From Bacillota bacterium (GTDB taxonomy: Bacteria > Bacillota > Clostridia > TANB77 > CAG-508), in the NCBI GenBank assembly GCA_052036095.1, contig JBPOHA010000056.1, forward strand, positions 466 to 64,465: a DNA stretch of 64,000 nt. Direction: 5' to 3'. Made by a program: the position numbers and the translations under genes. Below, one piece after another: positions 4,166-62,428 of this stretch (position 1 is the stretch's first letter; each line of letters starts with the position of its first letter). Below the pieces are notes generated by a model, which searched no databases, was not told where the DNA came from, and saw only the letters and a list, made by a program, of their open reading frames with translations.

Positions 4166-4291
4166 AATTTGGATTATTAACTTTCCTGACAAAGATGTGT
4201 TAGTAACTTCAAATGATGATTATTTTAATACTTGAATTTACTTTTACAATTCACAACCTACAATTACAAAAGTAAATATTTACAATAAGTA

Positions 4292-4320
4292 TTGCAAAAA
4301 GAAAACAGATACTGTAAAAT
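4292..4320 (+). promoter_or_regulatory. Sigma-A type promoter: TTGCAA, 17-nt spacer, TAAAAT
   Basis: Near-consensus -35/-10 with 17-nt spacing. The same 39-nt core GTATTGCAAAAAGAAAACAGATACTGTAAAAT recurs at 59042-59070, and its 5' half at 25366-25389. Confidence 0.6.
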
Positions 4321-4568
4321 AAAAATGTATTAAATCTCTATATAAAAAATATAAAGATGAAATACAACAAGAGAAAAATGATATAGAGAGGAATACAAGA
4401 AGAAAAAACAAAAGTATGCTAAAAAAGAATATAAAAAGTAAAAAGAAGTATACAATAAGCAAAATAACACAAAAAGAAAAAGCAAAAGTAGTGTAAAACA
4501 AAAAGTAAAAAGGCAGAAAAGTAAAAGAAACGAAAAGTTTAACACTAAAAATGAAAGGAGAATATCAA

Positions 4569-5768
4569 ATGAAAAGGATTATAAAAAATGTAAAAGGTAT
4601 CACATTAATAGCTCTTGTTGTAACAATAATAGTATTATTGATATTAGCAGGAGTATCAATCAATATAGCATTTAACACTGGAATAATAAGCAAATCAAAA
4701 AATGCAACAACAAAATATCAAGAAGCAACAGCAAATGAAACAAATAGCTTAAATGAAATAGAAAGTGAAGTAGATAAATTATCAAAAGGAGATAGCAACA
4801 AAATACCAACAGCAGATTTGGGAACATCAAAAAAAGCAAAAACAGTATTTACAACTAAAACAGATGTAACAGATGCATTAGGAAACAAAGCAAGAATTCC
4901 AGTAGGATTTAAGATAGCAGATGATTCAGCAGAAACAATACCAGGAGGAGTAGTAATAGAAGATGTAAGTGCTGGAGATAGCACATCAGTAGGAAATCAA
5001 TTTGTATGGATACCAGTAGGAAAAGAAATAAAAAGTGCAACAGAAACTGTAGATATAGCATTAGGAAGATATAGTTTTGATAGTAATGGAAATGCAACAG
5101 CATGTACAAATACAAGTTATGTAGAAGAAACTGCAACAGAACATAAAACAAGTGGAGATGGAAATACAATAGCAAAAGATATAGAAAAATTTAAACAAAG
5201 TGTATCAGATAATGGAGGATATTATCTAGCAAGATATGAAGCAGGAGTGACAGGATATGATTCTACAGTATCAACAGGCAATAGTAGTGGTGCAGCAAGT
5301 TGGACAGGATATGCAAATGGAAAGCTAACAATAAAATCAAATCAACAAGTATGGAATTATATAACACAAAATAAAGCAGCAGATATAGCAAGAAATATGT
5401 ATAGTGCAAATGTAACAAGTGATTTAGTAAATAGTTATGCATGGGATACAGCAATAGTATATATAGAGAAATGTGGAACAAATGCAAATTATGCAAATCA
5501 AATAGGAAAAGCAACTGATAACAATTTAGCAAATACAGGAATGACTAAATTAAAATCAACAAGTGCAATAGATGCACAATGCAATATATACGATATGGCA
5601 GGAAGTGTATATGAATGGACTACGGAGTCTGGCTCTAACACCCTCTATCGTTGCGTCATTCGTGGAGGCGTTTACTACGACAGCAACTACTTTTCGGCTA
5701 GTCGTAGCGGCGGCGATACGAGCTTTGCTTACGTAAGCATTGGTTTTCGTCCACTTTTATACTTGTAG
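4569..5768 (+). CDS. Pilin-like N-terminus plus C-terminal FGE-sulfatase (SUMF1/C-type-lectin-like) domain protein, paralog 1. The ORF track starts at 4551; the ATG at 4569 is better placed behind GGAG.
   Basis: N-terminus MKRIIKNVKG/ITLIALVVTIIVLLILAGVS resembles a class III (prepilin) signal peptide with E5 replaced by A. C-terminal motifs GRYEAG, SYAWDTA, GSVYEWT, RGGVYYD and a terminal IGFRPLLYL are typical of the FGE-sulfatase fold. Confidence 0.6.
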   Translation: MKRIIKNVKGITLIALVVTIIVLLILAGVSINIAFNTGIISKSKNATTKYQEATANETNSLNEIESEVDKLSKGDSNKIPTADLGTSKKAKTVFTTKTDVTDALGNKARIPVGFKIADDSAETIPGGVVIEDVSAGDSTSVGNQFVWIPVGKEIKSATETVDIALGRYSFDSNGNATACTNTSYVEETATEHKTSGDGNTIAKDIEKFKQSVSDNGGYYLARYEAGVTGYDSTVSTGNSSGAASWTGYANGKLTIKSNQQVWNYITQNKAADIARNMYSANVTSDLVNSYAWDTAIVYIEKCGTNANYANQIGKATDNNLANTGMTKLKSTSAIDAQCNIYDMAGSVYEWTTESGSNTLYRCVIRGGVYYDSNYFSASRSGGDTSFAYVSIGFRPLLYL

Positions 5769-6002
5769 CGCTGAGTCCTGATAATACAATATCGGGAAAT
5801 AGAATTAATAAAGAAAATCGTATGGCTTCCAAAGAGAAGAAGGTAGGAAGAGAATGAGTTCACAGCACCAAAAGATAAGAACCAGTTTAAAAAAATCACA
5901 AGATAAGCAAGAAAATTTTAATATACCTATTGACATTTTAAAAAAATAGTAATCTTAAAAATGTTATACATTTGAAATAAATAAATAAAAAAATATATAT
6001 GA

Positions 6003-6036
6003 AGCTCTGCAATTACTTAAGTTGCAGAGCTTTTAC
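6003..6036. terminator. Bidirectional intrinsic terminator (AGCTCTGCAA..TTGCAGAGCT)
   Basis: 10-bp perfect stem, with a T-run on the + side and an A-run upstream. Confidence 0.6.
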
Positions 6037-6304
6037 CTTATATTGCAAATAGTTTACAAAAACACAAATAGTTCACAAAATGGACATAAAAGAACTTATT
6101 ATGTAACTTATAACTTACAAAATTCGACAAAAAATAAAACTGTGGATAATGTGGATAACTCTGTGAATAACTTTTATTAGTACATTTCACAAAGACGAAT
6201 ATTAAGCAAAAAATAATTGAATAGTTATTATGGAAAGTAATCAAAAAAGTTAAAATATTATGTAAAACAATTATTAAAATATCAAATCATAATATATTAA
6301 AGAA

Positions 6305-6336
6305 AAAATTCTGATGTTTTACATCAGAATTTTTTA
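6305..6336. terminator. Bidirectional intrinsic terminator (AAAATTCTGATG..CATCAGAATTTT)
   Basis: 12-bp perfect stem flanked by an A-run and a T-run. It lies 36 nt downstream (minus strand) of the stop of small ORF 6372-6488. Confidence 0.7.
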
Positions 6337-6371
6337 CTATAAACAATAATTTCGATTATGGTGTGCTAAAA

Positions 6372-6488
6372 TTAGCAACCTCCAAATCCAAATCCTTTGC
6401 CTCCGCCGCAGCAACAGCAGATTAATAATAATACTATTATTATACAGCAACAGTCATTGTCTCTTCCACCGCATCTATTTTCTGGCAT
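6372..6488 (-). CDS. Unannotated 38-aa Cys/Gly-rich hydrophobic peptide (MPENRCGGRDNDCCCIIIVLLLICCCCGGGKGFGFGGC)
   Basis: Manual minus-strand translation. AGGAGG lies 8 nt upstream of the ATG, on the complement of 6497-6502. It is below the 60-aa cutoff of the ORF track. TAA stop at 6372-6374. Confidence 0.55.
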   Translation of the reverse strand: MPENRCGGRDNDCCCIIIVLLLICCCCGGGKGFGFGGC

Positions 6489-6538
6489 ATAAATCCCTCC
6501 TTTCTATGGATAAAAATTATGGTTTTTGCAAATCTTAA

Positions 6539-6673
6539 TTAGCAGTTTCCATCGTTTCCACAACATGGTTGTGGTGTTGGCATACAGTCATCATGGCCAC
6601 ATCCGCATCCACAGCAGCATATCAAAACGATAAGGATAATAAACCATAACATTTCGCTGTTTGAACCTCTCAT
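6539..6673 (-). CDS. Unannotated 44-aa Cys/Gly-rich hydrophobic peptide (MRGSNSEMLWFIILIVLICCCGCGCGHDDCMPTPQPCCGNDGNC)
   Basis: Manual minus-strand translation. AGGAGG (complement of 6681-6686) lies 7 nt upstream of the ATG at 6673. Tandem with the 6372-6488 ORF, with a 50-nt spacer carrying the second SD. Confidence 0.55.
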   Translation of the reverse strand: MRGSNSEMLWFIILIVLICCCGCGCGHDDCMPTPQPCCGNDGNC

Positions 6674-6764
6674 TGCAATACCTCCTCTTAAGATTTCTAA
6701 ATCTTTTGTATGATATATACTATTCTAAATACTCATATTTGGTTACATATCTTATAAAAAATAC

Positions 6765-6793
6765 TTGAAAATGAAAAATTGCTATGGTATTAT
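6765..6793 (+). promoter_or_regulatory. Sigma-A promoter for mutL: TTGAAA, 17 nt, TGgTATTAT (extended -10)
   Basis: Hexamers at 6765-6770 and 6788-6793 with a TG at -15/-14, 45 nt upstream of the mutL ATG. Confidence 0.5.
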
Positions 6794-6837
6794 ATTATTG
6801 AAATATAACATATTTATAAAAGTGAAAGGAACTTAAA

Positions 6838-9069
6838 ATGGGCAAAATTGTATTATTAGATGATTTAACTATAAATCAAATTGCTGCTGGAGAAGTTATT
6901 GAGAGACCAGCATCTGCAGTAAAAGAACTAGTAGAAAACTCGATAGATGCAGGAGCAAAAAATATATCAATAGATATAAAAAATGGTGGAATATCATATA
7001 TACGAATTACAGACGATGGTTCTGGAATCTTAAAAGACGATATGGAAATTGCTTTTGAAAGGCATGCTACAAGCAAAATTAGGAAAGCTGACGATTTAGA
7101 CACAGTTAAATCGATGGGGTTCAGAGGTGAGGCTTTAGCGAGTATTGCAGCAATTGCAAAAGTTGAAATGACATCAAAAGCATTAGGACAAGAAAATGGA
7201 TATACAATTTGCTTAGAAGGCGGAAACATAACTGATCAACATGAAGATGGCTGTGCACAAGGGACAAGTATTACAATAAGAGAGCTATTTTATAATACGC
7301 CAGTTAGATACAAGTTTTTAAAAAAAGATTTTACAGAAACAGGTTATATAGAAGAAACTATTCAAAGAATAGCACTTGCAAATCCTTCAGTTGCTATAAA
7401 ATTAGTTGATACTGGAAAAGTTACATTACAAACAACTGGAAATGGAAAGCTAGAAGATGCTATTTATGCAGTATTTGGTAAAGAAATTACAGAAAATGTA
7501 TTACCAGTAGATTATTCTTACGAAGATTTACATATAAATGGTGTTATTGGAAAACCAATAATTTCACGTTCAAATAGAACAAATCAATTATTCTATGTAA
7601 ATCATAGATTTATCAAAGACAAAACGTTAACTAGCGCAGCAGAGCAGGGATTTAAAGGATTAGTTACAATAGGAAAGCATGGATTTTTAATATTAAATAT
7701 TGATATGGATCCAAAGAAAGTTGATGTAAATGTACACCCAACAAAGCTTGAAGTAAGATTTGAGGAAGAATCTAAAGTTTTCAAGGCAGTATATCATGCA
7801 ATAAAAGAAACTTTACTTAAATCAGACTTAATTTCAAGTCCTGATAAAGATTATAGTGAGTTAACTCCAAATGACATTTTAAGAGATATTAGAAATAACT
7901 CAATAACGAATAATGCAAGGATAAAAGCTTGGGGAATTCAAAAAGCAGAAGAACCTTCTTCTAGTAGCAAAATAATTGAAAAAGAAAATCCAAAAGAAAA
8001 TGAAGAATCTATAAAAGAAAAAGAAGAACTTAATGAGGATTTTGTTGATGCGCAAGATATAATAAAAGAAGATATTGCAAAACATGTACAAGAAATGAAC
8101 AAAATTGACAATGTAACTCCTTTAAAAAATTCTTTAGATACAGATAAATTAGAAGTTTCAGCAGACAAAGAAAATATAGACAATGTAAAAGAAAATGTAG
8201 AAGAAAATGTAGAAGAAGAAGAAAATAATGAAATATCAAATCAAAATAGCAGTGAAGAAAATGTAACTACTAACAAAAATATTAGTGAAGAAAATCAAGT
8301 TTCTAATATAAGTGGTATTGAAGAGAAAGAGCCTTCTTTTGAAGAAATGTATCATAAGCTTTTTGGAAGAGATATAGAAGATGCTAAAAAAGAATATGAA
8401 GAAAAATTAAAAGAAGATGAGGAAAAATATCCTATACAACCTATATCAAATAATGAAGTATCAATGTTTGAAAAAGAAGGAGTAGATAAAAATCCACCTT
8501 ATCAATTTGTTGGAATAGCATTTAAAACATATATTATTTTGACTATAAAAGATGAATTATATATATTAGATCAACACGCAGCTCATGAAAGAATTATGTA
8601 TGAAAAAGTAAAAGAAAATTATTATAGCAAAACAGATAAAGATTCTCAATTGATGTTAATACCAGACATAATTAACTTAAACAATAAAGAAATGGGAATA
8701 TTTAGAGATAATAAAGAAATGTTTAATGAAGCAGGATTTATAGTAGATGAGTTTGGTGAAAATACCGTAAAATTAACTGGAGTTCCAGAATTTTGCTTAG
8801 AATTTGATACTAAAGAAATATTTTTGGAAACATTAGATGAGATAGATACTGTTGCAAGAACTGCAAAACAAGAAATCGAAGATAAATTTTTAGCAACTGT
8901 AGCATGCAAGGCAGCTGTTAAAGCACATATGGCATTATCTAAAGAAGAAGTTGACAGTTTAATGAAACAATTGCTAAGACTTCCAAATCCATTTAGTTGC
9001 CCACATGGAAGGCCTACAGTAATTAAAATGACAAAGAATGATATTGAAAAGAAATTCTCAAGGAGATAA
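6838..9069 (+). CDS. mutL: DNA mismatch repair protein MutL, with a roughly 200-aa acidic/Asn-rich low-complexity linker
   Basis: N-terminal GHKL ATPase motifs (IAAGEVIERPASAVKELVENSIDAGA, DDGSGI). C-terminal dimerisation domain with QHAAHERI. Confidence 0.95.
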   Translation: MGKIVLLDDLTINQIAAGEVIERPASAVKELVENSIDAGAKNISIDIKNGGISYIRITDDGSGILKDDMEIAFERHATSKIRKADDLDTVKSMGFRGEALASIAAIAKVEMTSKALGQENGYTICLEGGNITDQHEDGCAQGTSITIRELFYNTPVRYKFLKKDFTETGYIEETIQRIALANPSVAIKLVDTGKVTLQTTGNGKLEDAIYAVFGKEITENVLPVDYSYEDLHINGVIGKPIISRSNRTNQLFYVNHRFIKDKTLTSAAEQGFKGLVTIGKHGFLILNIDMDPKKVDVNVHPTKLEVRFEEESKVFKAVYHAIKETLLKSDLISSPDKDYSELTPNDILRDIRNNSITNNARIKAWGIQKAEEPSSSSKIIEKENPKENEESIKEKEELNEDFVDAQDIIKEDIAKHVQEMNKIDNVTPLKNSLDTDKLEVSADKENIDNVKENVEENVEEEENNEISNQNSSEENVTTNKNISEENQVSNISGIEEKEPSFEEMYHKLFGRDIEDAKKEYEEKLKEDEEKYPIQPISNNEVSMFEKEGVDKNPPYQFVGIAFKTYIILTIKDELYILDQHAAHERIMYEKVKENYYSKTDKDSQLMLIPDIINLNNKEMGIFRDNKEMFNEAGFIVDEFGENTVKLTGVPEFCLEFDTKEIFLETLDEIDTVARTAKQEIEDKFLATVACKAAVKAHMALSKEEVDSLMKQLLRLPNPFSCPHGRPTVIKMTKNDIEKKFSRR

Positions 9070-9220
9070 AAATTTAAAGTTATCTTTATATAAATAAAAT
9101 AGAATTTTAAAAGTATCAAATATAAGAGGCTAAGCTAAATTTATGAATGTAAAATAATAAGCTAATTATTAAAAAATGAGAAAGAAGAATAATAATAGAA
9201 TTAGATAGGATGATATTGAC

Positions 9221-9724
9221 ATGCAAAATATAATAGTAACATTATTGATAATATTTAATATATTTGGAATTTTTATACTTTTAAAAATGACAAAAGGAAA
9301 AGAAATAGTAACGAGAATAATACTTACTATATCATTGATTATTTTAAATTATATTATACTAAACGTAATATATAAAATTGCTTCAATTGGAGTAGATAGT
9401 GATGTTACTTCTGCTTCAAAAATTATGCTGATATTTGCATTTATGCCAATAAATTTGGTGGCGATTGCTAGCCCAATTGCAATCGCAACAAATGAGAAAA
9501 AGATGGAAGCAAAGAAAAATATAATTCTTAGAAATGTAATTATTACGATTATTATATTAGTTTTTGAAATTATTGCTTTGAAAAATATTCAAATTGGAAT
9601 AGAAGATATAAGAAACAAAAGAAGTATCGGAATAGAAAATGATAAAGTTTTTGAAGATTATAACAATGTTGAAAAAAATAATATAACTAATACAATTATA
9701 AAGGATAATATAACAAAAAAATAA
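9221..9724 (+). CDS. Hypothetical integral membrane protein
   Basis: 167 aa, multiple hydrophobic helices, no recognisable motif. Confidence 0.35.
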   Translation: MQNIIVTLLIIFNIFGIFILLKMTKGKEIVTRIILTISLIILNYIILNVIYKIASIGVDSDVTSASKIMLIFAFMPINLVAIASPIAIATNEKKMEAKKNIILRNVIITIIILVFEIIALKNIQIGIEDIRNKRSIGIENDKVFEDYNNVEKNNITNTIIKDNITKK

Positions 9725-9788
9725 AAATATAAATAAAAAATAAACAAATATAAATAAAAAATATATAGAATATGCAAGGATTTATGAG

Positions 9789-10700
9789 ATGGAAAAAACA
9801 ATGAATAGACCTAAAATAATAGTTATATGTGGACCTACAGCTTCTGGAAAGACAAGCTTAGGCATACAAGTTGCAAATAGAATAAATGGTGAAATAATAT
9901 CTTGTGATTCAATGCAAATATACAAGGAAATGAATATTGGAACAGCAAAGCCAACGATTGAAGAGCAAAAGCAAGCAATACATCATTTAATCGATTTTGT
10001 AGAGCCAACTGAAAGATATAGCGTGGCTCAATTTAAACTAGATGCAGATAAAAATATTAAAGAAATTATTTCAAAAGGTAAAAGCCCAATTCTAGTTGGT
10101 GGGACAGGACTATATATCAACTCGCTAATATATAATATAGAATACAAAGAAATTTCCACTAATTTAGAATACAGAAAATCATTAGAAAGTGTAAACTTAC
10201 AAGAGTTATATGAAAAAGCAAGATTAATTGATAACGAAGCCGTTAGCAAAATTAGCAATACTGATAGAAAAAGATTAAGCAGAATATTGGAGCTGTACAA
10301 CACAACTGGAAAAACTAAAACTCAATTGGAAAAAGAATCTAGAAAAGAGCTTCAATATGATTACAAAATATTTGTATTAAATATGCCAAGAGAGATATTA
10401 TATGACAGAATAAACAAAAGAGTAGATTTAATGATTAAAAATGGACTTATTGAAGAAGTAAGTAAATTGCTAAAAAAATATAATGAATTTCCAACGGCAA
10501 TGCAAGGACTAGGATACAAAGAAGTAAAAGAATATCTAGATGGAACTATAAATAAAGAAGAAATGATTGAAAAAGTCAAACAAGAATCAAGAAGATATGC
10601 AAAAAGGCAATTAACATGGTTTAGAACTTATAAAGACGCAACTTGGCTTGAAGCGGGAAATACTAAAAATGTAGAAATCATATCAAATTCTATTATTTAA
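9789..10700 (+). CDS. miaA: tRNA dimethylallyltransferase
   Basis: P-loop VICGPTASGKTSLGIQVA and DSMQIYKEMNIGTAKPT. The mutL-miaA synteny is retained. Confidence 0.92.
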   Translation: MEKTMNRPKIIVICGPTASGKTSLGIQVANRINGEIISCDSMQIYKEMNIGTAKPTIEEQKQAIHHLIDFVEPTERYSVAQFKLDADKNIKEIISKGKSPILVGGTGLYINSLIYNIEYKEISTNLEYRKSLESVNLQELYEKARLIDNEAVSKISNTDRKRLSRILELYNTTGKTKTQLEKESRKELQYDYKIFVLNMPREILYDRINKRVDLMIKNGLIEEVSKLLKKYNEFPTAMQGLGYKEVKEYLDGTINKEEMIEKVKQESRRYAKRQLTWFRTYKDATWLEAGNTKNVEIISNSII

Positions 10701-10778
10701 AAGATTATAAAAATGAAATAAGAAAGATTCAAATTATAAAATAGGAAAAATTAATAGAACTTCATAAAAGGAGAGCCT

Positions 10779-12062
10779 TTGAAAAAACAAGAAAGCAATA
10801 AAAACAAAATAGAAGAAAAGAGAAAAAGAAAATTAAATAAATTAAGATTTGCTATAGTTAGTATAATAGCTATAGTTTTTATTGCGTATATGATGAGCTC
10901 TGTGGCTAATTTAATAAGAAATCCTAGCAATACTGTGATAGTAAAAGAGGGCACTGTATCAAAAGAAGAAACTGCTATTGGAACAATTATAAGAAATGAA
11001 ACAGTTATAAAAGGAGAAAATTACAAAAATGGAATGGAACAGATTGCAGATGAAGGAAAGAAAATTGCAAAAGGCGAATCACTATTTAGATATTATTCTA
11101 GTGGAGAAGAAGATATAAAAAACAAAATAAAGACATTAGACCTAAAAATTCAAGAAGCAATACAAAACAATAATGACGATTTATATTCAAGTGATACTAA
11201 GATTTTAGATTCTCAAATAAGCGAAAAGTTGGACAGCATAAATAGTCTAAATAGCATTCAAACGATACAAGAATACAAAAAGAACATAGCAAATTTAATT
11301 TCAAAGAAGGCAAAAATTGCAGGTGAATTAAGCCCAAGTGGTTCATATTTAAAAAAACTAATTGACCAGCGAACAGAATATGAAAATGAACTAACTGATG
11401 GATCTGAATATATTAAATCACCAAGCAGTGGAATAGTTTCATATAGAGTAGACGGTTTGGAGGAAAAATTAACTACTGAGGATTTTTCAAAATATAATAA
11501 ACAATTTTTAAACGGATTAAATATAAAAACAGGACAAATAATTCCAACTAGCAATGAAAAAGGAAAAATCATTGACAATTTCATTTGCTACATAGCATGC
11601 ACAAGCAACACAAAAGAAGCAAATAATGCAAAAATAGATGATACCTTAAAAATTGTTTTACCAAGCGGAAAAACGATACCTGCAAAAATAGAGTATATTA
11701 TAAAAGAAAACGACAATGAATCAACACTAATGCTAAGTTTCACAGAGGGAATAGATGAGCTAATAACTTATAGAAAAATAAATTTTGACATAATTTGGTG
11801 GAATTCTAAAGGATACAAAGTACCAAATTCTGCTATAATAACAAAAAATAATTTAAACTATGTAATAAGAACGAAAAATGGATACGAAGAGAAAGTTATA
11901 GTAAAAGTAAAAAAAGTATCTGATTATTATTCAATAGTATCAAATTATAGCACATCCGAAATTAAGGAGTTAAACTTAGAAAAAGATGTAAGCACTTCAA
12001 TAATATTGTATGATGAGTTAATATTAAAACCAACAGAGGAAAAAATTGACAGCATCAAGTAA
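10779..12062 (+). CDS. Membrane-anchored coiled-coil protein, HlyD/membrane-fusion-like. TTG start after AAAGGAGAG.
   Basis: N-terminal K-rich segment plus one TM, then long coiled-coil and beta-rich regions. It occupies the slot where hfq usually follows miaA. Confidence 0.3.
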   Translation: MKKQESNKNKIEEKRKRKLNKLRFAIVSIIAIVFIAYMMSSVANLIRNPSNTVIVKEGTVSKEETAIGTIIRNETVIKGENYKNGMEQIADEGKKIAKGESLFRYYSSGEEDIKNKIKTLDLKIQEAIQNNNDDLYSSDTKILDSQISEKLDSINSLNSIQTIQEYKKNIANLISKKAKIAGELSPSGSYLKKLIDQRTEYENELTDGSEYIKSPSSGIVSYRVDGLEEKLTTEDFSKYNKQFLNGLNIKTGQIIPTSNEKGKIIDNFICYIACTSNTKEANNAKIDDTLKIVLPSGKTIPAKIEYIIKENDNESTLMLSFTEGIDELITYRKINFDIIWWNSKGYKVPNSAIITKNNLNYVIRTKNGYEEKVIVKVKKVSDYYSIVSNYSTSEIKELNLEKDVSTSIILYDELILKPTEEKIDSIK

Positions 12063-12194
12063 TATTACAAAAAAATTACAAAAAGGTTAAATTAGCATTA
12101 CATATTAACAAAAACTATTGACAATAATTCGAAAAAGTTAGATACTAAGTATAATCGATAAATACGAATGAAAAATAATAGGAGGTTATTTTTA

Positions 12195-12671
12195 ATGGCA
12201 AGCGTAGTAAATAAATTATGGAATATGATAAGCATGAACAATGCTGAAGAAGCAGATGAGGAATATGACGAAAACGAGAACCAAGAAGGATATGAAGACC
12301 AAGAAGAGATAGATGAGGAGCCAAAAGGATTATTTGGAAGAAAAAATAATAAAGTTGTAAACATGCAATCAACTGTTAGAATGGTGATTTTACAACCAAC
12401 TACTTTTGAACAAGCTTCAGAAATTTGTGGTTTATTAAAGGAGAAAAAGTCAGTTATTGTTAATTTAGAATATGTTAACAAAGACGATGCAAGAAGAATA
12501 ATTGATGTTGTCAGTGGTGCAGCATTTGCACTAGATGGCTATATGAAAAAAGTTTCTGGATCTATTATTTTGGTAGCTCCATATAATTATGATATTACAG
12601 ATGACAAAGATGCAGCTAAACCATCAAAATTACCACCAGTATCTTGGTTAAAAAATAATTTAAATAATTAA
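12195..12671 (+). CDS. sepF: Cell division protein SepF. The ORF track starts at 12168; the ATG at 12195 follows AGGAGG.
   Basis: Acidic N-terminal linker, then VVNMQSTVRMVILQPTTFEQASEICGLLKEKKSVIVNLEYVNKDDARRIIDVVSGAAFALDG, matching the SepF core. Confidence 0.88.
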   Translation: MASVVNKLWNMISMNNAEEADEEYDENENQEGYEDQEEIDEEPKGLFGRKNNKVVNMQSTVRMVILQPTTFEQASEICGLLKEKKSVIVNLEYVNKDDARRIIDVVSGAAFALDGYMKKVSGSIILVAPYNYDITDDKDAAKPSKLPPVSWLKNNLNN

Positions 12672-12769
12672 TTTTGATCTATTGTATTAAGTATTTTTAA
12701 GGTTAGTATTAAAATTTTAAATTAAAAATATTTTTCATGCTATAGAAATATAAAATGCGGAGGTATGAA

Positions 12770-13225
12770 ATGATTACACCATTAGAGATTGAAAACAAAA
12801 AGTTCTCTAAAAAAACTTTAAATGGATATAATCCAGAAGAAGTTGACGACTTCTTAGACGATTTAACAAATGATTATGAAAAATTATATAAAGATTCTCA
12901 AGCAAGTCAAAGCAAAATAGAAGAATTAAAAACATCATTAGAACATTATACACAAATAGAATCTACTTTGCAGAGCACTTTATTAATGGCGCAATCTGCA
13001 TCAGATGAAGTTAAAAATGCTGCTCAAAAACAAGCTGAACAAATTATAAAAGAGGCTGAAGGAAAAGCAAGAGAAGCTACGCTAGGATTAGAAAGCAAAA
13101 TATCAGAAAAAAAGAAAGAATTAGAAAGCTTAGAAAAACAATTTGATGTATACAAAGCTAAAATGGAATCATTACTTATTTCTCAACTTGAATTATTAAA
13201 AGAAGTAAATAAAGACGAAGAATAA
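12770..13225 (+). CDS. divIVA: DivIVA domain protein. The ATG at 12770 follows GGAGG.
   Basis: MITPLEIENKKFSKKTLNGYNPEEVDDFLDDL is the canonical DivIVA N-terminus, followed by coiled coil. Confidence 0.88.
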   Translation: MITPLEIENKKFSKKTLNGYNPEEVDDFLDDLTNDYEKLYKDSQASQSKIEELKTSLEHYTQIESTLQSTLLMAQSASDEVKNAAQKQAEQIIKEAEGKAREATLGLESKISEKKKELESLEKQFDVYKAKMESLLISQLELLKEVNKDEE

Positions 13226-13278
13226 GAAATATATAAAATTAAAAATACTAAATAAATTACATTTTTGTAATAAAACTA

Positions 13279-13321
13279 AAGAGGCAAATGCTATAAAAGG
13301 CTAAACCTCTTTATTTTTTTG
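13279..13321 (+). terminator. Intrinsic terminator after divIVA (AAAGAGG..CCTCTTT + T8)
   Basis: 7-bp stem with a large loop, then TTATTTTTTT. Confidence 0.5.
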
Positions 13322-13421
13322 CTATGATACTAAAAAAAACATGTATTACATAGAAGTTAAGGAAATATTACAATTTTATTATTGATATTGACAAGGAAAA
13401 AATAAGGGCTAAAATAGTATT

Positions 13422-13973
13422 ATGAGAGTTATAAGTGGAAGAGCTAGAGGGACTAAACTTAATTCAATAGAAGATATATCAACCAGACCTACATTAGACA
13501 GAGTAAAAGAATCTTTATTTAATATTTTACAAGAAAAGATACGAAATAAAGTAGTATTAGATTTATTCGCAGGTAGTGGAGCATTAGGAATTGAAGCTTT
13601 GAGCAGAGGAACACGAAAAGCATATTTTTGTGATGTTAATAAAGAATCTATAAAATTTATTAAATCAAATTTGCAAAAGACTAATTTTATTGATCAAGCG
13701 ATTATATTAAATGAAGATTACAAAAAGTGCATTTTAGAATTAAATGAAAAAGTAGATATTATATTTATAGATCCACCATACAAAGCAGATATTGGAGTGA
13801 ATTCTATAAAATTAATAATCGAAAATAATATACTCAGTAAAGAGGGAATTATTGTACTAGAAACAGATGAAAAAATAAGAGATGAAGAAGAAATAAAAAA
13901 AATTAGTAATATTACTATTTATGATGCTAGAAAATATGGAAGAGTAAACTTATTGTTCATAAAGTGTGGATAA
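13422..13973 (+). CDS. rsmD: 16S rRNA (guanine966-N2)-methyltransferase
   Basis: VLDLFAGSGALGIEALSRG and DPPY motifs. Preceded by TTGACA, 16 nt, TAAAAT at 13390-13417. Confidence 0.88.
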   Translation: MRVISGRARGTKLNSIEDISTRPTLDRVKESLFNILQEKIRNKVVLDLFAGSGALGIEALSRGTRKAYFCDVNKESIKFIKSNLQKTNFIDQAIILNEDYKKCILELNEKVDIIFIDPPYKADIGVNSIKLIIENNILSKEGIIVLETDEKIRDEEEIKKISNITIYDARKYGRVNLLFIKCG

Positions 13974-24027: not shown

Positions 24028-25011
24028 ATGGACGGATTAATAATAGTAGACAAGCCAATTGGAAAAACATCATTTGATATGGTTCATGAAATAAGAAAAA
24101 AATATAATATACAAAAAGTAGGGCATATAGGCACTTTAGATCCATTAGCAACAGGAGTATTGCCTATATTAATTGGTCAAGCAACAAAACTTTCTGATTA
24201 TTTAATGGAACATGACAAAGAATATATAGCAACTTTAAAATTGGGACAAGCCACAGAAACAGGAGATCAAGAGGGAAAAATAATAGAAGAAAAAGAAGTT
24301 CCTAATTTAGGAAAAATTGATATACAAAGAATTTTGAATGAAAACTTCATAGGTGAGCAAATGCAAGTGCCACCAATGTATTCTGCTATTAAAGTAAATG
24401 GAAAAAAATTATATGAGCTAGCTCGCAAAGGTGAAAAAATAGATGTAGCACCTAGAAAAATAAATATTTTTGAGATTGAATATTTAGAAAAAGACGTGAC
24501 AATGAATGATAGCAAAAATCTATTATTAGATGAAGAAGAAAATGAAGAATCTAATAAGATGGCAAACCTAGAAATGATAAAAAAAGAAGGCACAACAAAA
24601 AATACTATAACTTTTAGAGTAGTATGTTCTAAGGGAACATATATACGAGTATTATGTGAAGATATTGCTAAAAAAATAGGAACATGTGGATATATGGAAT
24701 CTTTAAGAAGAACTCGAGTTGGTGATTTTAAAATTGAAGAAACGGGAAAATTTATTGATCTTAAGGATTTATTAAAAGTACCTAATGTAAATATAGAAAA
24801 TAATGATATGAAGAAATTGTTAAATGGAGTTCCTATAGAAATAAATAATACAGAGATTTCAAAAAATGAAAATAAAAATGATGATGAACATAAAATGGAA
24901 AAAATAAATAAAAATGAAACTTTATATTTAGTTAATATTTATAATAATGAAAAATTTGTTGGAATTGGTGAGATAAAAAACAATTTCTTAAAAAGAAAAA
25001 TATTAGTATAA
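24028..25011 (+). CDS. truB: tRNA pseudouridine(55) synthase TruB with a C-terminal extension
   Basis: GLIIVDKPIGKTSFDMV..HIGTLDPLATGVLPILIG. The catalytic Asp lies in GTLDP. Confidence 0.92.
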   Translation: MDGLIIVDKPIGKTSFDMVHEIRKKYNIQKVGHIGTLDPLATGVLPILIGQATKLSDYLMEHDKEYIATLKLGQATETGDQEGKIIEEKEVPNLGKIDIQRILNENFIGEQMQVPPMYSAIKVNGKKLYELARKGEKIDVAPRKINIFEIEYLEKDVTMNDSKNLLLDEEENEESNKMANLEMIKKEGTTKNTITFRVVCSKGTYIRVLCEDIAKKIGTCGYMESLRRTRVGDFKIEETGKFIDLKDLLKVPNVNIENNDMKKLLNGVPIEINNTEISKNENKNDDEHKMEKINKNETLYLVNIYNNEKFVGIGEIKNNFLKRKILV

Positions 25012-25080: not shown

Positions 25081-25290
25081 AAAAAAAGCCCCCATGTTGG
25101 CCGTAAGCTTAAGAATTTTAAGAGCCTGTTTACACAGGTGGGTGTCTTGTTAAATACTTATGGGCTTCTTACTAAGTAAGCATGCACGCCATATTTAAAG
25201 GCAGACTCCCTTTAATCTAAATGTTGGTTCTAAAATCTTAAACTACACGCACCACACAGGGAATAATCTTTACTGTACTTATAGAGTATC
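25081..25290. ncRNA. Candidate structured non-coding RNA: a GC-rich ORF-free island
   Basis: About 45% GC against about 25% in the flanks. No ORF longer than 20 codons on either strand. Several local hairpins (CCUGUuuacaCAGG; CUUACuaaGUAAG) and a possible long-range pairing GGGUGUCU/AGACUCCC. The minus-strand version ends GGGGGC(U)9. Confidence 0.3.
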
Positions 25291-25360
25291 ATAATTTCTT
25301 TTTAAAAGCAATAGATTTTTGAAAAATTCACAATAAATATACACTATTAAAAATTGTTTT

Positions 25361-25560
25361 AAAAGTATTGCAAAAAGAAAATAGATACTGGGTGCTTATG
25401 ACGGCCTTGGTTTCCGTCCAATTTTATACTTGTAGCGCTGAACCCTAATAATACAATATTTGGAAATAGAATTAAGAAAGGAAATCGTATGGCTTCAAAG
25501 AGAAGAAGGTAGGAAGCGAATGAGTTCACAGTACCAAAAGGTGATATGTTTCACACACTT
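25361..25560 (+). pseudogene. Remnant of an FGE-domain pilin-like gene cassette: promoter 5' half fused to a 16-codon C-terminal fragment (..GAYDGLGFRPILYL*) plus the conserved 3' element
   Basis: 25362-25389 matches 4288-4314 (the -35 and spacer). 25408-25557 is about 90% identical to 5745-5880. The -10 and almost all of the coding sequence are absent. Confidence 0.65.
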
Positions 25561-25565
25561 TTACA

Positions 25566-25600
25566 GGACTAGTCTTGCCGGACTAGTCCTTATTTTATTT
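25566..25600 (+). terminator. Intrinsic terminator (GGACTAGTC..GACTAGTCC + TTATTTTATTT)
   Basis: 9-bp perfect stem followed by a U-rich tract, immediately after the cassette remnant. Confidence 0.65.
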
Positions 25601-25873
25601 AAAATAAGGACTATAAGGTTATGTAAATAAGAAGGAGAACTAGAATGAAATAGAAATTTAAAGTATTCTATTTTAAAACATGTATTTACTTTTAAAATTC
25701 ACACACAATTATTTACGTTATTTTTTTAGAATTTTATGTTTATTTTTTTTCATTAATGTGTTATTATTAAAAGGAAAAATTTGCAAAATAAATATAATTA
25801 ATTTACAATAATTATAATGGCTAAAAATAATATATGCAATTAAATAAAAACATAATAAGCTAAGGAGAAAAAC

Positions 25874-26725
25874 TTGAAAAATAAAAAAACGACGATAGTT
25901 ATAAAAGGAAAGACAAATACTAGATATAATATATTTTATAAGTTAGTAGCTACAATTGTATTAATTGTAATTTTTATAATATTGCTCACAAATTTAATAA
26001 TTAATAAAGTAACAAATAATAAATTTGCACAAGAAGCAAATGAGTTTTCAAAAATGAATGCAACTACTGTTTTTAGTATAGATAAAATCTATATGTACAG
26101 TAGTGCTAGTGCGACGAGTAATCAAGACACTAGACCTATATGGAATTTAGATGTAAGCCAATATACAGATATTGCATTATACATAAATAATAGACCATTA
26201 GAAGGACAGAATTATGAAAATTCTATAAAAGAGATGTACATAAGCAATGTTAAATTTGTAGGACCAGAAGTAGGAACTCCTACGATTTATTACAAAAATA
26301 TTAATAACTTTGGAAAGATTAATTCTACTGAAGATTATAAGATAGAGGATAAGCTAGAATATGATGTAATTAAAGAGGGAGATGTTGATTATAGCAAACC
26401 TCAAATATTTAGTAACTGTCAAAATCCAATAACATTAGAATATATAAACAAAGATATTAAACAGAATACAATAATTTCTGATATTAGCTCAGAAATTAAG
26501 TTTGATGGAAGTATATTAAGAAGAACTGGAGTTATATTGGATACTATAAGTTCTACGCTTTCATTTAAAATAACAATTATTAATTATTATAATCAAGAAT
26601 TTGTAACAAATGTATATATTGATATTCCTTTAAGGGATACAGTAAATAATGCTACTATATATAATAGTAATATAGTAAAAAAGTTAGAAAGCACTAATTT
26701 AATAAAATTTTTTAGAATAAAATAG
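25874..26725 (+). CDS. Hypothetical signal-anchored protein (TTG start)
   Basis: 283 aa, one N-terminal TM, N/Y/T-rich, no recognisable motif. Confidence 0.3.
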   Translation: MKNKKTTIVIKGKTNTRYNIFYKLVATIVLIVIFIILLTNLIINKVTNNKFAQEANEFSKMNATTVFSIDKIYMYSSASATSNQDTRPIWNLDVSQYTDIALYINNRPLEGQNYENSIKEMYISNVKFVGPEVGTPTIYYKNINNFGKINSTEDYKIEDKLEYDVIKEGDVDYSKPQIFSNCQNPITLEYINKDIKQNTIISDISSEIKFDGSILRRTGVILDTISSTLSFKITIINYYNQEFVTNVYIDIPLRDTVNNATIYNSNIVKKLESTNLIKFFRIK

Positions 26726-29894: not shown

Positions 29895-30039
29895 ATTATT
29901 GACTTTGAAAACTCCAAATGCTAAAATGGGATACATAATAAGATATAAATTATATATATAAATAGTAGACTTTGTATATAATATAAATTATGTTGCTATA
30001 AGAAACGAAAAAATTTTATACAATGATAAGAAGAAAAAA

Positions 30040-30186
30040 AGTTAATAATAAAACAAAAATTAATAATAAAACAAAAGTTAATAATAAAACAAAAGTTAAT
30101 AATAAAACGAAAGTTAATAATAAAAGAAAAGTTAATAATAAAACGAAAGTTAATAATAAAACAAAAATTAATAAGAAAAATAAAAA
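30040..30186 (+). repeat. Seven tandem copies of a 21-bp repeat (AAAACAAAAGTTAATAATAAA)
   Basis: Direct reading. In frame with ORF 30023-30379, but the only Shine-Dalgarno (AGGAG 30190-30194) serves the ATG at 30200, so the array is probably 5' non-coding. Confidence 0.75.
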
Positions 30187-30199
30187 AATAGGAGAAAAA

Positions 30200-30379
30200 A
30201 TGAAAGAAAAGATTGAAAAAGATAGTAAAGAAGCGAAAAAAATAAAAAGAGAAGATAAAAAACAAAAAATTCGTAGAGTTGCCAAAATAGGTATGACAAG
30301 ATTAATTGCGTTAATAGTATGCTTGTGTATGATATTAGCAACAGCAGGTACATTAATTTTTTACTTAATTAATCAATAA
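30200..30379 (+). CDS. Small K-rich single-TM membrane protein (59 aa) upstream of cdaA
   Basis: MKEKIEKDSKEAKKIKREDKKQKIRRVAKIGMTRLIALIVCLCMILATAGTLIFYLINQ. AGGAG 6 nt upstream. Confidence 0.45.
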   Translation: MKEKIEKDSKEAKKIKREDKKQKIRRVAKIGMTRLIALIVCLCMILATAGTLIFYLINQ

Positions 30380-58946: not shown

Positions 58947-59041
58947 ATAAAAAATATATTCCTAGCAACTAAAACTTATGAATAAAATTTGATACTTTAA
59001 TTAAACACATAAACTTTTTAACGCATAATTAAAAAAATGTA

Positions 59042-59070
59042 TTGCAAAAAATAAACAGATAATGTAAAAT
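59042..59070 (+). promoter_or_regulatory. Second copy of the cassette promoter (TTGCAA, 17 nt, TAAAAT)
   Basis: GTATTGCAAAAAATAAACAGATAATGTAAAAT matches the promoter at 4288-4320. Confidence 0.6.
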
Positions 59071-59210: not shown

Positions 59211-60365
59211 ATGAATCGAAAGATAGAAAAACTTTGGAAAAGAGAAAGTGGAATTACTATGATTTCACTAGTTATAACAATAATAGTTTTATTAATATTA
59301 GCATCAGTAACTATTAAGGTAACATTAAATACAGAAATAGTAGAAAAGACAAAAAATACAGCAACAGAGTATAAAGAATCTGAAAGTAACCAAACAAATC
59401 AATTGTCAAATTTAAAAGTATATATAGATGCAGATGTAGGATACACAATTAAAGCTACAACTGTCAAAGAAGCAAAGGAAGAAGGAGAATACTATAATAG
59501 TAATACAGAAATAACAGACTCAAGTACAACGCCAGCAAAAATAAAAGTTCCAGCTGGATTTAAAATAGCAAGTGATTCAGCAACAAAAGTAGCAGGAGGA
59601 GTAGTAATAGAAGACACAAATGGTAATCAATATGTATGGATACCATGTACAATAGATGGAGCAAATGGAAGCTTAAAGTATGATAGATATGACTTTCAAA
59701 AGCAAGACGGGTACTATGGTGGATATTCAGAAAATATGTCAAGTGATAATAATGAGCAAAATAGTATAAAAGATAATGGTGGCTATTACATTGGCAGATA
59801 TGAGGCTGGGATAAATTCACAAAGGACAGAATCTGGAGACAAAACAAAAATGACTATGGCTGATTTGGGAGAGGTGCTAGAAAAAAATAATCAGTTCGTA
59901 TATAATTATGTAACAATAGACCAAGCAAAGAAATTAGCAGTGGAAGTATCTAGTCATTATGATTATTCATTAATGAGTGAGTTATGCAATAGTTATGCAT
60001 GGGATACAGCATTAAAATTTATTGATGCAACAGTAGATGGATATTCAACAAATACAACACAAGGAAATTATAATAATACATCATTTACATATACAGATAT
60101 CAATGGAAATACACAAACAAAAGGAACAGGAACGTCAACTTTGATACCTACAGGAAAAACCACATCAGTATGTAATATATATGATATGGGAGGAAATACA
60201 TGGGAGTGGATAACAGAATCTTATGCAAATTCAAGTTCTAAGTATGTTTATCGTGGAGGAAGTATTGATAATAGTTTTTCAAATAATCCTGCGGGATGCA
60301 GAAGTTATGATAATAATACATGCTCTCATTATAACATTGGATTTCGAGTTACTTTATATTTATAA
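59211..60365 (+). CDS. Pilin-like N-terminus plus FGE-sulfatase domain protein, paralog 3
   Basis: N-terminus MNRKIEKLWKRESG/ITMISLVITIIVLLILASVT. Motifs GRYEAG, SYAWDTA, GNTWEWI, RGGSIDN and terminal IGFRVTLYL. A purine-rich leader as for paralog 1. Confidence 0.6.
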   Translation: MNRKIEKLWKRESGITMISLVITIIVLLILASVTIKVTLNTEIVEKTKNTATEYKESESNQTNQLSNLKVYIDADVGYTIKATTVKEAKEEGEYYNSNTEITDSSTTPAKIKVPAGFKIASDSATKVAGGVVIEDTNGNQYVWIPCTIDGANGSLKYDRYDFQKQDGYYGGYSENMSSDNNEQNSIKDNGGYYIGRYEAGINSQRTESGDKTKMTMADLGEVLEKNNQFVYNYVTIDQAKKLAVEVSSHYDYSLMSELCNSYAWDTALKFIDATVDGYSTNTTQGNYNNTSFTYTDINGNTQTKGTGTSTLIPTGKTTSVCNIYDMGGNTWEWITESYANSSSKYVYRGGSIDNSFSNNPAGCRSYDNNTCSHYNIGFRVTLYL

Positions 60366-60400: not shown

Positions 60401-62428
60401 ATGAAGATACAACATTTAGCAGTTATTTTTGTAATAATAATACTTCCTATATCACTGGTGTTATCAATATATACAGGAAATCTTATAAAAGTTTCAAATA
60501 AGCAATCTTCGTATGACACATTATTGCTTAATTCTACTTATGATGCTGTCAGAGCATATCAAATGAATACATTAAATAACAATTATACTGGAGTTAACGA
60601 GTCAAAAATTAGAGATATAAATGCTTCAGTAAATTCATTCTTCAATAGTTTAGCTACAGGTCTTTCTTCAAGCGGATATAGTAAAGATGATTTAAGAACG
60701 TATGTCCCAGCAATGATATATACATTATATGATGGATATTATGTTTATGGATGTTATAAAAATTCAGCCTCGATTTCAAATGGAAAGCCACAGTTTTCAA
60801 CTGATGCTACTCTTAATAGAGATACTGAATATGGTCTTAAATCATATGTATATTATTCTTGCGAATATAAAAATACAGATTATGATATAATTGTTAATTA
60901 TTCACTTGATAATTATATTTCAGTATATGGCACATATACTGAAAATGGAGAAAAAAAGTTTATATCAAAATCAGGATATTATATAGCTGCAGATGGGATA
61001 ACTATTGATAATACAACAAAAACTGTAAAAAAAGATAATAGAATTGTTGCAGAACCTGAAACTTTGGGGGAATATATATCTACTACTGATAATTATTATA
61101 CAATTAGTAATAATCAAAGAATATACCATACAAAAAAGAATGATACTAAATATTATAATTATATTATTTATAATAGTGTAAAATATTATTTTGATGATTA
61201 TATTAAAACTAATCCACCTGCAAGCTACAAAACAGCTATAGGTAACCAAATTCTAAATACAAGTTTCAATAACTCATATGATGGATATCCTGTATTTAGA
61301 TTAGAAAATAATTTACGAGTATATTTAAATAAAAATGAGTTAGATTCAGTTGTTGACTATTTAAATGGAGACCAAACATGGACAACTAATGATTTGGTTA
61401 ATAATAAGGGAACTTATTTTAAAGATATAAATGCATATTATTATTACAAAAATGCAAAAGATTTCAGTGAAAAGTTATACCCAATATTAAGTCAAATAAA
61501 TATATACACATCAGATAAGCAATATAATGATGTTATTCAAACTGATACATATAAGGAAAAATATGTTACACAATTAGGAAGTGATGCAGATACGCATGTA
61601 AAAACATCTTATGATACTGGAAAAATATTTGACTATAAAGAAAGTGGAAATAATCCGGAATTAGAATCTTCATCATTTAACAACCATAGAATTGATGTAA
61701 TAGTAAGTTCTATAGAGTCTAGTCTTGTAACATCAATCAAAAATTTTAATGATTATACAGCAAGCTCATTTGAATATACAATGCCAGTTTTAAGCGAAGA
61801 TGATTGGTATACAATAGCTAACAATATGACAGTTGTTTCTTTTCTACAGGGACTTACAATAGGAAATTATAAATATTATAGCAATTATACTGTTGTTGCA
61901 AATACAAAAAACAATGAGTTCGTATCAAAAGATTCAATATATGTACAAGATGATTATGAGAAAAGTATTGGATCACCACAAGATAGCACACTTGCTGGGG
62001 CTTGGGAAAACTTGTATAAAAATAATATTTTTTCATTCTTTGGAACTCAAACTGAAGCAGAATATCATAACCCAAGATGTAATTTGTATAATACAACAAT
62101 GAATACGAGAATTAATAATTCATCATCTTCACAACAAGAAAAAATAAAAGTAGTAGGATATAAAAATACTGAATATGATAGAGTAAGTTTTACGTATCAA
62201 ATAAAAGATGGAAATACAATAGGTACAGAACAAGTGGAAAATTATTATTTGCAGCCAGGATCTAGCGGTTATGAATGTATAGTTTCGCAAGGAGAAGTAA
62301 ACACAATTACTACCGATGATTTAATTGAAGGAACAAAGAAAGTAAATAGTGAAATTAGCAAAGCATATGTTACAGCACTTGCACGTGAAAGGGCAGCGAT
62401 ATATAGATATTCAAGTAATTTAGATTAA
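60401..62428 (+). CDS. Large signal-anchored N/Y/T-rich extracytoplasmic protein, co-operonic with FGE paralog 3
   Basis: 35-nt gap after the upstream gene, N-terminal TM. 675 aa, no recognisable catalytic motif. Confidence 0.45.
   Translation: MKIQHLAVIFVIIILPISLVLSIYTGNLIKVSNKQSSYDTLLLNSTYDAVRAYQMNTLNNNYTGVNESKIRDINASVNSFFNSLATGLSSSGYSKDDLRTYVPAMIYTLYDGYYVYGCYKNSASISNGKPQFSTDATLNRDTEYGLKSYVYYSCEYKNTDYDIIVNYSLDNYISVYGTYTENGEKKFISKSGYYIAADGITIDNTTKTVKKDNRIVAEPETLGEYISTTDNYYTISNNQRIYHTKKNDTKYYNYIIYNSVKYYFDDYIKTNPPASYKTAIGNQILNTSFNNSYDGYPVFRLENNLRVYLNKNELDSVVDYLNGDQTWTTNDLVNNKGTYFKDINAYYYYKNAKDFSEKLYPILSQINIYTSDKQYNDVIQTDTYKEKYVTQLGSDADTHVKTSYDTGKIFDYKESGNNPELESSSFNNHRIDVIVSSIESSLVTSIKNFNDYTASSFEYTMPVLSEDDWYTIANNMTVVSFLQGLTIGNYKYYSNYTVVANTKNNEFVSKDSIYVQDDYEKSIGSPQDSTLAGAWENLYKNNIFSFFGTQTEAEYHNPRCNLYNTTMNTRINNSSSSQQEKIKVVGYKNTEYDRVSFTYQIKDGNTIGTEQVENYYLQPGSSGYECIVSQGEVNTITTDDLIEGTKKVNSEISKAYVTALARERAAIYRYSSNLD

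Follow-up and report, generated by a model that had tools for sequence, protein, structure and literature searches.

The DNA analysed here, a 64,000-nt stretch referred to as the window, holds between truB (24028-25011) and a gene for a 283-aa protein (25874-26725) the leftover of a variable-protein gene of a diversity-generating retroelement (DGR), in which half of a promoter is joined to the last 14 codons of the gene and its 3' flank. The window is chromosomal, with 26% GC and core genes that include rpsO, pnp, mutL, miaA, nusA, infB, rbfA, nrnA, and truB. The stub, flagged in a preliminary description, is most likely a decayed remote target of a DGR family, and looks like ordinary gene loss in an interesting family. 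We give a probability of roughly 0.7 to its having arisen by an internal deletion in a once-intact resident paralogue that left a stub now fixed and inert. The elements of the stub, its surroundings, and the reference copy are as follows.

4221-5880, plus strand: reference full-length cassette, with pre-promoter, promoter, leader, gene, VR, and 3' element.
25085-25265, minus strand: 6S RNA gene, convergent with truB (Rfam RF00013, 110.4 bits).
25313-25362, plus strand: pre-promoter region of the stub cassette, with the AATTCACA motif, adjoining the divergent 6S RNA promoter.
25363-25390, plus strand: family promoter without its -10 hexamer; the -35 (TTGCAA, 25368-25373) is followed by the 17-nt spacer, which runs to ...GATACTG.
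25391-25408, plus strand: six former variable-region codons, GGT GCT TAT GAC GGC CTT (G A Y D G L).
25409-25435, plus strand: complete IMH-like VR end (IMH, initiation of mutagenic homing) with its stop, GGTTTCCGTCCAATTTTATACTTGTAG, read as G F R P I L Y L.
25436-25545, plus strand: lineage-specific, non-coding post-VR element of ~110 nt.
25565-25613, plus strand: intrinsic terminator with an 11-bp stem (25565-25590) and a T run as far as 25600; a second palindrome (25584-25613) overlaps it.
25662-25712, plus strand: fragment of a second cassette pre-promoter, 3' of the stub terminator, with the shared 20-mer ATTTACTTTTAMAATTCACA.

Both halves of the stub have a counterpart in the full-length copy. 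In BLAST alignments, 25363-25390 matched the promoter of the full-length gene (4287-4314) at 27 of 28 positions, and 25407-25540 matched the gene end and 3' flank (5740-5874) at 91.1% over 135 nt (E = 4e-43); the preliminary description had beforehand let its reading stand or fall on a similarity of about 90% over about 140 nt, and the alignments bear this figure out. Every element that it had named in the clean fusion of a promoter half to the last 14 codons of an FGE-domain gene was likewise present, as was the conserved 3' element followed by a terminator. Exact copies of the 26-mer GTATTGCAAAAAGAAAAYAGATACTG stand at 4289-4314 and 25365-25390, a copy with three mismatches stands at 59039, and 100 shuffles gave 0 chance matches. 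Farther upstream, 25325-25390 aligned to 4248-4314 with 78% identity over 68 nt, and the homology of stub-less relatives to the window stops at about 25340.

The deletion junction lies between 25390 and 25391. The promoter of the full copy (TTGCAA-17-TAAAAT, 4292-4320) belongs to a type that a promoter alignment showed to be kept upstream of family genes in other genera; the stub departs from this consensus right after ACTG (25390) and reads GGTGCT from 25391. As promoter homology ends at 25390 and the gene frame begins at 25391, the junction first placed at 25389/25390 moves one base to the right. The stub lacks the segment equivalent to 4315-5723 of the full copy (1,409 nt), which comprises the -10, the 248-nt A-rich leader, and 385 codons; the preliminary description had named the -10 and about 1.2 kb of coding sequence. 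The remaining promoter half (25363-25390) was not scored as promoter-like in a promoter scan. The frame 25391-25435 translates as GAYDGLGFRPILYL followed by a stop, and an in-frame TAG stands nine codons upstream of the GFRPILYL-stop block, three codons before the GGT at 25391, so that the six variable codons are not translated within any gene.

Some further features of the 5' region were observed. The family promoter and the first ~50 nt of the leader are kept across genera (L066 at about 9733-9817, L043, L080, and L032), and the window leader (4321-4568) contains an internal direct repeat (4392-4475 versus 4466-4550, 72%). The long A-rich 5' leader could be a regulatory leader. The second pre-promoter fragment, downstream of the stub terminator, shares with the full cassette an exact 20-mer, ATTTACTTTTAMAATTCACA, at 4236 and 25684, for which 0.24 matches are expected even when three mismatches are allowed; the similarity amounts to 88.6% over 35 nt by BLAST and to about 45 of 52 positions in an alignment, and the core of the fragment recurs in the post-terminator flank of L001, a further family locus described below. 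Possibly, the fragment is the 5' margin of an adjacent cassette that has been lost.

Judged from relatives, the "FGE cassette" family consists of DGR variable-protein genes, which the preliminary description missed. The C-termini of the more than 7,500 homologues are built on one invariant scaffold, EWTTET.S.S..PCV.RGG.Y..S..YTS.R.....TS.A.S..SFRPLLYL, whose fixed residues are separated by hypervariable positions. When species-representative genomes were scanned, 78 family loci came up in MAGs of uncultured gut Clostridia, one of which is a closed 1.57-Mb chromosome, and the genomes often hold more than one copy. A search for a phage or plasmid origin gave no matches. Template repeats were sought by testing the 3' end of each gene for a second near-copy. 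At three loci (L066, L012, and L096), the target gene is followed by genes for a MutS_I protein, bAvd, and an RVT_1 reverse transcriptase, and then by a template repeat. The VR of L066 (11150-11350) is 86% identical to the repeat at 13469-13613, and 17 of the 20 mismatches fall at TR adenines.

The pattern recurs in the sister lineage with the same VR end as the window copies. The VR-end pattern, run against metagenomes, picked out 21 loci of this lineage. A single 140-nt TR (L096, 2316-2455; also in L086), which has MutS_I, bAvd, and RT genes as neighbours, accounted for every one of the 21 VRs; about 83% of mismatches lay at TR adenines, and in its own VR the ratio was 21:1. Collinearity of TR and VR extends through GGTTTTCGTCCACT; beyond it the TR reads CTCTAATATTTTTCTAG and the VR TTTTATATTTGTAG, an IMH*/IMH relationship. 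The last ~140 nt of the gene in relatives thus differ from the template repeat almost only at template adenines, a pattern indicating that the gene end is rewritten there from the template repeat by a reverse transcriptase that misreads adenines. The RT of L096 is split into two overlapping ORFs (1287-1931 and 1819-2298), by a frameshift or an assembly error, and 21 diversified VRs match the adjoining TR. At L002, a 102-aa MutS_I-domain ORF (11521-11829) follows the target gene, with no Avd or RT gene within 10 kb; this target may be a remote one that was duplicated along with part of a DGR accessory gene.

Profile searches suggest, weakly for the pilin part, that the family proteins combine a type IV pilin-like N-terminal helix with a C-terminal FGE/C-type-lectin domain. 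With the FGE-sulfatase profile, 13 of 14 members gave matches at E ≤ 0.1, the best being 1.2e-7; for PF03781, the full copy in the window scored 18.6 bits, which is below the Pfam cut-off of 23.3, and the paralogue at 59211 scored 32.1 bits. Matches of the family to PorK/GldK and SUMF2 chains were weak. The N_methyl profile (PF07963) matched five of 14 members (best 5.5e-4; window copy 0.045), and the family profile hit geopilin N-terminal domains (1.4e-3); the family N-terminus (KG/ITLIALVV) lacks the Glu usual at +5.

No TR or RT was found in the 64-kb window, where the sole second copy of the VR end is the stub; the source contig is 65 kb, so that the search for DGR genes was bounded by the window. 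That the window copies are DGR targets is concluded from family membership, a composition shift, and an identity dip confined to the VR. The gene of the full copy occupies 4569-5768, its A-poor VR about 5617-5768, and its 3' element 5769-5880; across 5620-5770, the last ~150 nt, the A fraction falls from about 0.5 to 0.17 and GC rises to 0.53. The third family member in the window (59211-60365), whose promoter at 59039-59064 has three mismatches to the family promoter, has ordinary AT-rich, Asn-rich codons in the VR-equivalent position, no GC-rich VR, and no 3' element; on its sequence, it looks like a paralogue outside DGR targeting.

Other genes in the window were also recorded. Two Cys/Gly-rich hydrophobic peptides are encoded between the full cassette and mutL (6372-6488 and 6539-6673, both minus strand; 38 aa, MPENRCGGRDNDCCCIIIVLLLICCCCGGGKGFGFGGC, and 44 aa), with gene calls in contig L110 too (1280-1396 and 1447-1581). 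The 675-aa protein encoded after the 59211 gene (60401-62428) has no Pfam or NCBIfam match, and ORF 30023-30379 (plus strand) has a tandem KVNNKT-type repeat at its N-terminus (MIRRKKVNNKTKINNKTKVNNKTK...).

L001 comes from the same sample as contig L105, which is 99.5% identical to the window, and is therefore probably a same-species paralogue; like L105, it is listed as present in three samples. The L001 cassette is without a promoter (9829-10000); its homology to the window leader begins a few bases past the stop codon of an upstream Fe-ADH gene, at a point about 17-25 nt into the predicted transcript. Between window and L001, the post-VR element is as conserved as the gene body, and identity in the VR falls to 45-70%.

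Since the family consists of DGR targets, the 3' piece retained in the stub is the end of a hypervariable region with an IMH and a flank that the TR lacks. The collinearity of TR and VR in the sister lineage and the IMH*/IMH switch indicate that the stub holds a complete IMH (25409-25435), which is identical to the full copy at 25 of 27 positions (93%) and to L001 at all 27. The six variable codons are more diverged from the surviving copy (11 of 18 nt identical, 61%) than are the IMH and 3' element (123 of 137; Fisher p = 0.004), and this excess divergence shows that the stub VR diversified independently of the surviving copy. After the stop codon, stub and surviving copy agree at 25 of 30 bases (positions 1-30) and at 73 of 80 (positions 31-110). 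The post-VR element is 90.8% identical to 5766-5874 and about 91% identical to L001 over 79 nt, and was found only in the window (two copies) and L001; the core of the 3' element had no match in a metagenome scan, and the stop-codon junction had no exact DNA match in species-representative genomes. Stub and L001 also have in common the hairpin GGACTAGT...ACTAGTCC and the flank beyond it.

Long post-VR flanks, each particular to its lineage and unrelated to the flank of the TR, occur in other lineages as well. One genome has five targets with at least 60 nt of common flank, including a CCACTGkTAGTGG hairpin, and in three of the five the common stretch is about 140 nt; this hairpin, which adjoins the IMH, stands out clearly in the CABUKD lineage. 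Among the 21 sister loci, the common post-VR flank is at least 130 nt long. The position of the post-VR element, and the analogy with Guo et al. 2011 (PMC3240598), suggest that it may have a role in target recognition or processing. A small protein was rejected as an interpretation of the 3' element, as the sense ORFs (MASKRRR-stop, MASKEKKVGRE-stop, and a 33-aa peptide) differ among the three copies; antisense frames break differently among the same copies. A structured RNA is not supported: an Rfam search of 25266-25880 at E ≤ 1 gave nothing but a spurious 19.7-bit hit, and structure was weak. The fold z-scores of the 3' region are driven by the terminator hairpin, and the 7-bp stem adjacent to the IMH in the window lineage has z-scores between -0.6 and +1.1, the three sequences compared showing one compensatory pair.

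The stub is not confined to one assembly. Further contigs were found through the protein of the downstream gene, which is recorded on three more contigs; exact-protein look-ups with the window TruB, the cassette protein, and P0001 returned no record. L105 (sample ERZ22666005) matches the window at 99.5% over 14.9 kb, and L106 (ERZ22666148) at 99.9% from 25310 on; samples holding the species are these two and SRR34217590. In the window, L105, and L106, the 258-nt stub (25363-25620) is the same base for base. Identity in three independent assemblies indicates that the stub is real and fixed in the sampled population. The first ~24-27 nt of L106 (1-27, opposite window 25286-25312) are wholly unlike the window; the break, at 25313, coincides with the start of the cassette-derived block and the end of the 6S -35, and this departure could be contig-end noise or a structural variant.

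Variation of the VR between strains was assessed with L110, a contig anchored downstream of mutL and from the same sample as L105. It covers 5093-13535 of the window with eight substitutions in 8,443 nt, none of them in the VR or 3' element. There is thus no sign of ongoing diversification of the intact copy between two strains on that timescale, which weakens the case for a DGR active here now but leaves derivation from a DGR target standing.

The history of the truB-6S slot can be followed in relatives. The 6S promoter (TTGCTT-17-TACTCT, about 25283-25311, minus strand), located in a three-way alignment, is divergent from the promoter half of the stub. Three nearer relatives, L081, L082, and L083 (TruB 84%, 61%, and 55% identical to that of the window), have 6S at the same position and on the same strand; L083 is fully syntenic, and the L081 contig (sample SRR8925740) ends within 6S. 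In L082 and L083 the slot is empty, with no stub, and the spacers cannot be aligned past the 6S promoter; the spacer from truB to the next gene is about 610 nt in the nearer relatives versus 862 nt in the window. The sole relative with a full-length family gene in the exact slot is the distant L042 (TruB 40%), in which rbfA, nrnA, truB, and 6S precede a family gene of 398 aa, with a frameshift close to its C-terminus and ordinary codons there. Its 6S gene (5234-5419, plus strand) is inverted relative to truB. A tie between 6S inversion and the deletion was considered and rejected, since the minus-strand arrangement is ancestral in the nearer stub-less relatives and only L042 differs.

Family genes occupy other recurrent positions: about 3 kb downstream of truB in L078, upstream of mutL in L065 (the slot of the full copy in the window), and beside spoIIP in L024, L079, and L038 (the slot of the 59211 gene). 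Such conserved slots across genomes suggest old resident paralogues rather than a mobile cassette. The proposal that the stub marks a hotspot for the family accordingly fared unevenly: the L042 gene in the same slot and the L078 gene ~3 kb away lend it weak support, and the empty slots of L082 and L083, together with residence at several conserved slots in place of repeated insertion, speak against it. Tandem family genes occur in L005, L031, L043, and L051, and these, with the second pre-promoter fragment, suggest that the site may once have held a tandem pair.

The favored deletion can be pictured as follows. A family paralogue would once have occupied the space that separates the 6S RNA gene from the gene after truB, perhaps as the leading member of a short tandem pair. 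One illegitimate deletion, about 1.4 kb long, would then have taken out everything from the -10 hexamer to codon 385 and brought the promoter spacer (...GATACTG) up against the six variable codons that remain. The stub, without a -10, leader, start codon, or open frame, would give no protein and probably little or no transcript, and would persist because it is recent or neutral. We infer both the inertness of the stub and deletion in situ; for the latter, no genome of this species or of a close relative with an intact gene at the site was found. A discrete deletion explains the clean promoter-to-gene-end fusion better than slow decay, as the preliminary description had held. Its further suggestion of recombination between cassette copies was not demonstrated: the donor was not found, and the junction lacks usable microhomology, sharing at most the single G at 25390. 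Microhomology-mediated deletion is not supported, the GATAC near both end points in the surviving copy being 2 nt out of register. A 5'-truncated retro-copy of cassette mRNA was rejected because homology to L001 runs past the terminator into flank outside the transcript, to about 25627.

Counting against a single deletion, the IMH and terminator of the stub match the L001 paralogue and not the surviving window copy, so that more than one rearrangement may be involved. A multi-step history, in which a tandem pair underwent unequal or ectopic recombination with an L001-type paralogue, importing the 3' end and terminator while the second cassette was lost apart from its pre-promoter edge, is the alternative we take most seriously, although we regard it as improbable. 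It would account for the cassette pre-promoter fragment downstream of the stub terminator, the perfect IMH match to L001 (27/27), and the presence in the stub of the L001 terminator and post-terminator flank, which the full copy in the window lacks; L001, from the sample and contig set of L105, is probably a same-species paralogue, and tandem arrays are known from L005, L031, L043, and L051. Homologous recombination between cassettes would, however, yield a hybrid gene and not a promoter-spacer/VR junction, the promoter-to-VR join still requires an illegitimate break, and the first 30 post-stop bases of the stub match the full copy better (25/30) than L001 (17/30). An assembly artefact that skipped a real full-length gene deserves mention in that the window derives from a MAG contig, and assembly is often upset by repeated promoters and 3' elements and by hypervariable regions; it is effectively refuted by the identity of the 258-nt stub in three samples, obtained with different assemblers and k-mer sizes, and by the absence of any k-mer common to the junction sides that could cause a false join.

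We think it quite unlikely that the stub is not inert but an orphan acceptor still recognised in trans, or that aberrant retrohoming made the 1.4-kb deletion. Retention for a working 3' module, either as an orphan DGR acceptor in trans or as an sRNA running from TTTATA-18-AATAAT to the terminator, is also quite unlikely. Guo et al. (PMC3240598) report for the Bordetella phage system that IMH and downstream inverted repeat suffice to target a heterologous gene and that sequences upstream of the VR are dispensable; the IMH of the stub is intact, IMH and flank are 91-93% identical, long post-VR flanks are generally kept in the clade while the flank of the TR itself is unrelated, and the promoter-like site overlaps the stop codon (25423-25452) and has an equivalent at the corresponding position of the full copy (5756-5785). 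Set against this are the lack of an Rfam family match, fold z-scores that stem from the terminator hairpin, a weak IMH-adjacent hairpin with its one compensatory pair in three sequences, the lack of any sign of current DGR activity in the species, and the finding of no orphan IMH stub among the 21 loci identified, without bias, by IMH pattern alone, the remaining loci giving nothing but frameshifted copies; identity across three assemblies is uninformative here, as the strains are 99.5-99.9% identical overall. A retrohoming by-product, in which a short cDNA that had entered at the IMH became linked by its 5' end to the promoter region and not to homologous VR sequence, with loss of the 1.4 kb between, is very improbable. 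The right-hand break does lie only 18 nt upstream of the IMH, within the segment replaced in retrohoming, and 5' cDNA integration is described by Wu et al. (PMC5758913) as imprecise and homology-dependent; moreover, six of about 100 loci (L003, L034, L042, L072, L076, and L102) have a frameshift in or just before the VR. These frameshifts could be real DGR-associated indels or assembly errors arising from VR heterogeneity, however; no microhomology between promoter spacer and VR is in register, and the promoter-to-VR fusion recurs at none of the other loci among about 100.

The stub alone matters little; deletion in a resident paralogue remains our preferred account of it, and its value is that it points to the "FGE cassettes" of the window as DGR targets with a putative pilin-like N-terminus. 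The family stands at conserved slots (pnp-mutL, truB-6S, and spoIIP) in small-genome gut Clostridia, often in multiple copies, and the stub, together with the VR of the intact copy that is unchanged between strains, shows how DGR targets are lost. If the post-VR flank is a recognition or processing element, it would extend the known needs of a target (IMH and 24-bp hairpin); such flanks could then help to predict remote targets and to design retargeted DGRs. If the stub were active or had been made by retrohoming, natural stubs would be a record of failed DGR cDNA integration, and the ~110-140-nt post-VR elements would be indicated as a previously undescribed cis component of MSL-type DGRs.

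Among the closest known counterparts is the TvpA system of Treponema denticola, in which TvpA and remote paralogues are DGR targets with FGE-type C-type-lectin variable domains (Wu et al. 2018, PMC5758913); remote targets are documented, and allowed by the family definition, in the same work. As in that system, the window family has its VR at the extreme 3' end of the gene and a C-terminal domain with FGE-sulfatase profile matches in 13 of 14 members, has several paralogous targets per genome, some far from the RT, and shows adenine-specific variation relative to one TR, with an IMH at the VR end. Unlike TvpA, it has a putative pilin-like helix at the N-terminus in place of a lipoprotein signal and MutS-like and Avd accessories rather than HRDC, and the object described here is a 45-nt gene stub, not a working target. 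In accessory genes, the relatives resemble "Architecture D" DGRs, which carry a MutS-like (MSL) gene, for example the Legionella DGR (PMC5758913): they have a small MutS_I-domain protein, bAvd, RT, and a TR after the RT. The window differs in that none of the MutS_I, bAvd, and RT genes lies within it.

At the VR end, the relevant comparison is with the mtd target of BPP-1, for which Guo et al. 2011 (PMC3240598) describe a GC-rich IMH and a downstream hairpin/cruciform, 24 bp; a hairpin or cruciform occurs just downstream of the IMH in 34% of DGRs (PMC5758913). As in mtd, the family VR ends in an IMH that is first GC-rich, then AT-rich, and that differs from the IMH* of the TR, and the sequence just downstream is common to targets and absent from the TR. 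Unlike that of mtd, the common flank is about 110-140 nt long rather than 24 bp and is lineage-specific, and the IMH hairpin is clear in the CABUKD lineage but weak in the window lineage. Finally, the stub resembles ordinary pseudogene stubs in its clean loss of the -10, the leader, and 96% of the coding sequence, in having no open frame, and in being fixed; it differs from them in that its parent is a hypermutation target and the piece retained is the cis module that defines such a target.
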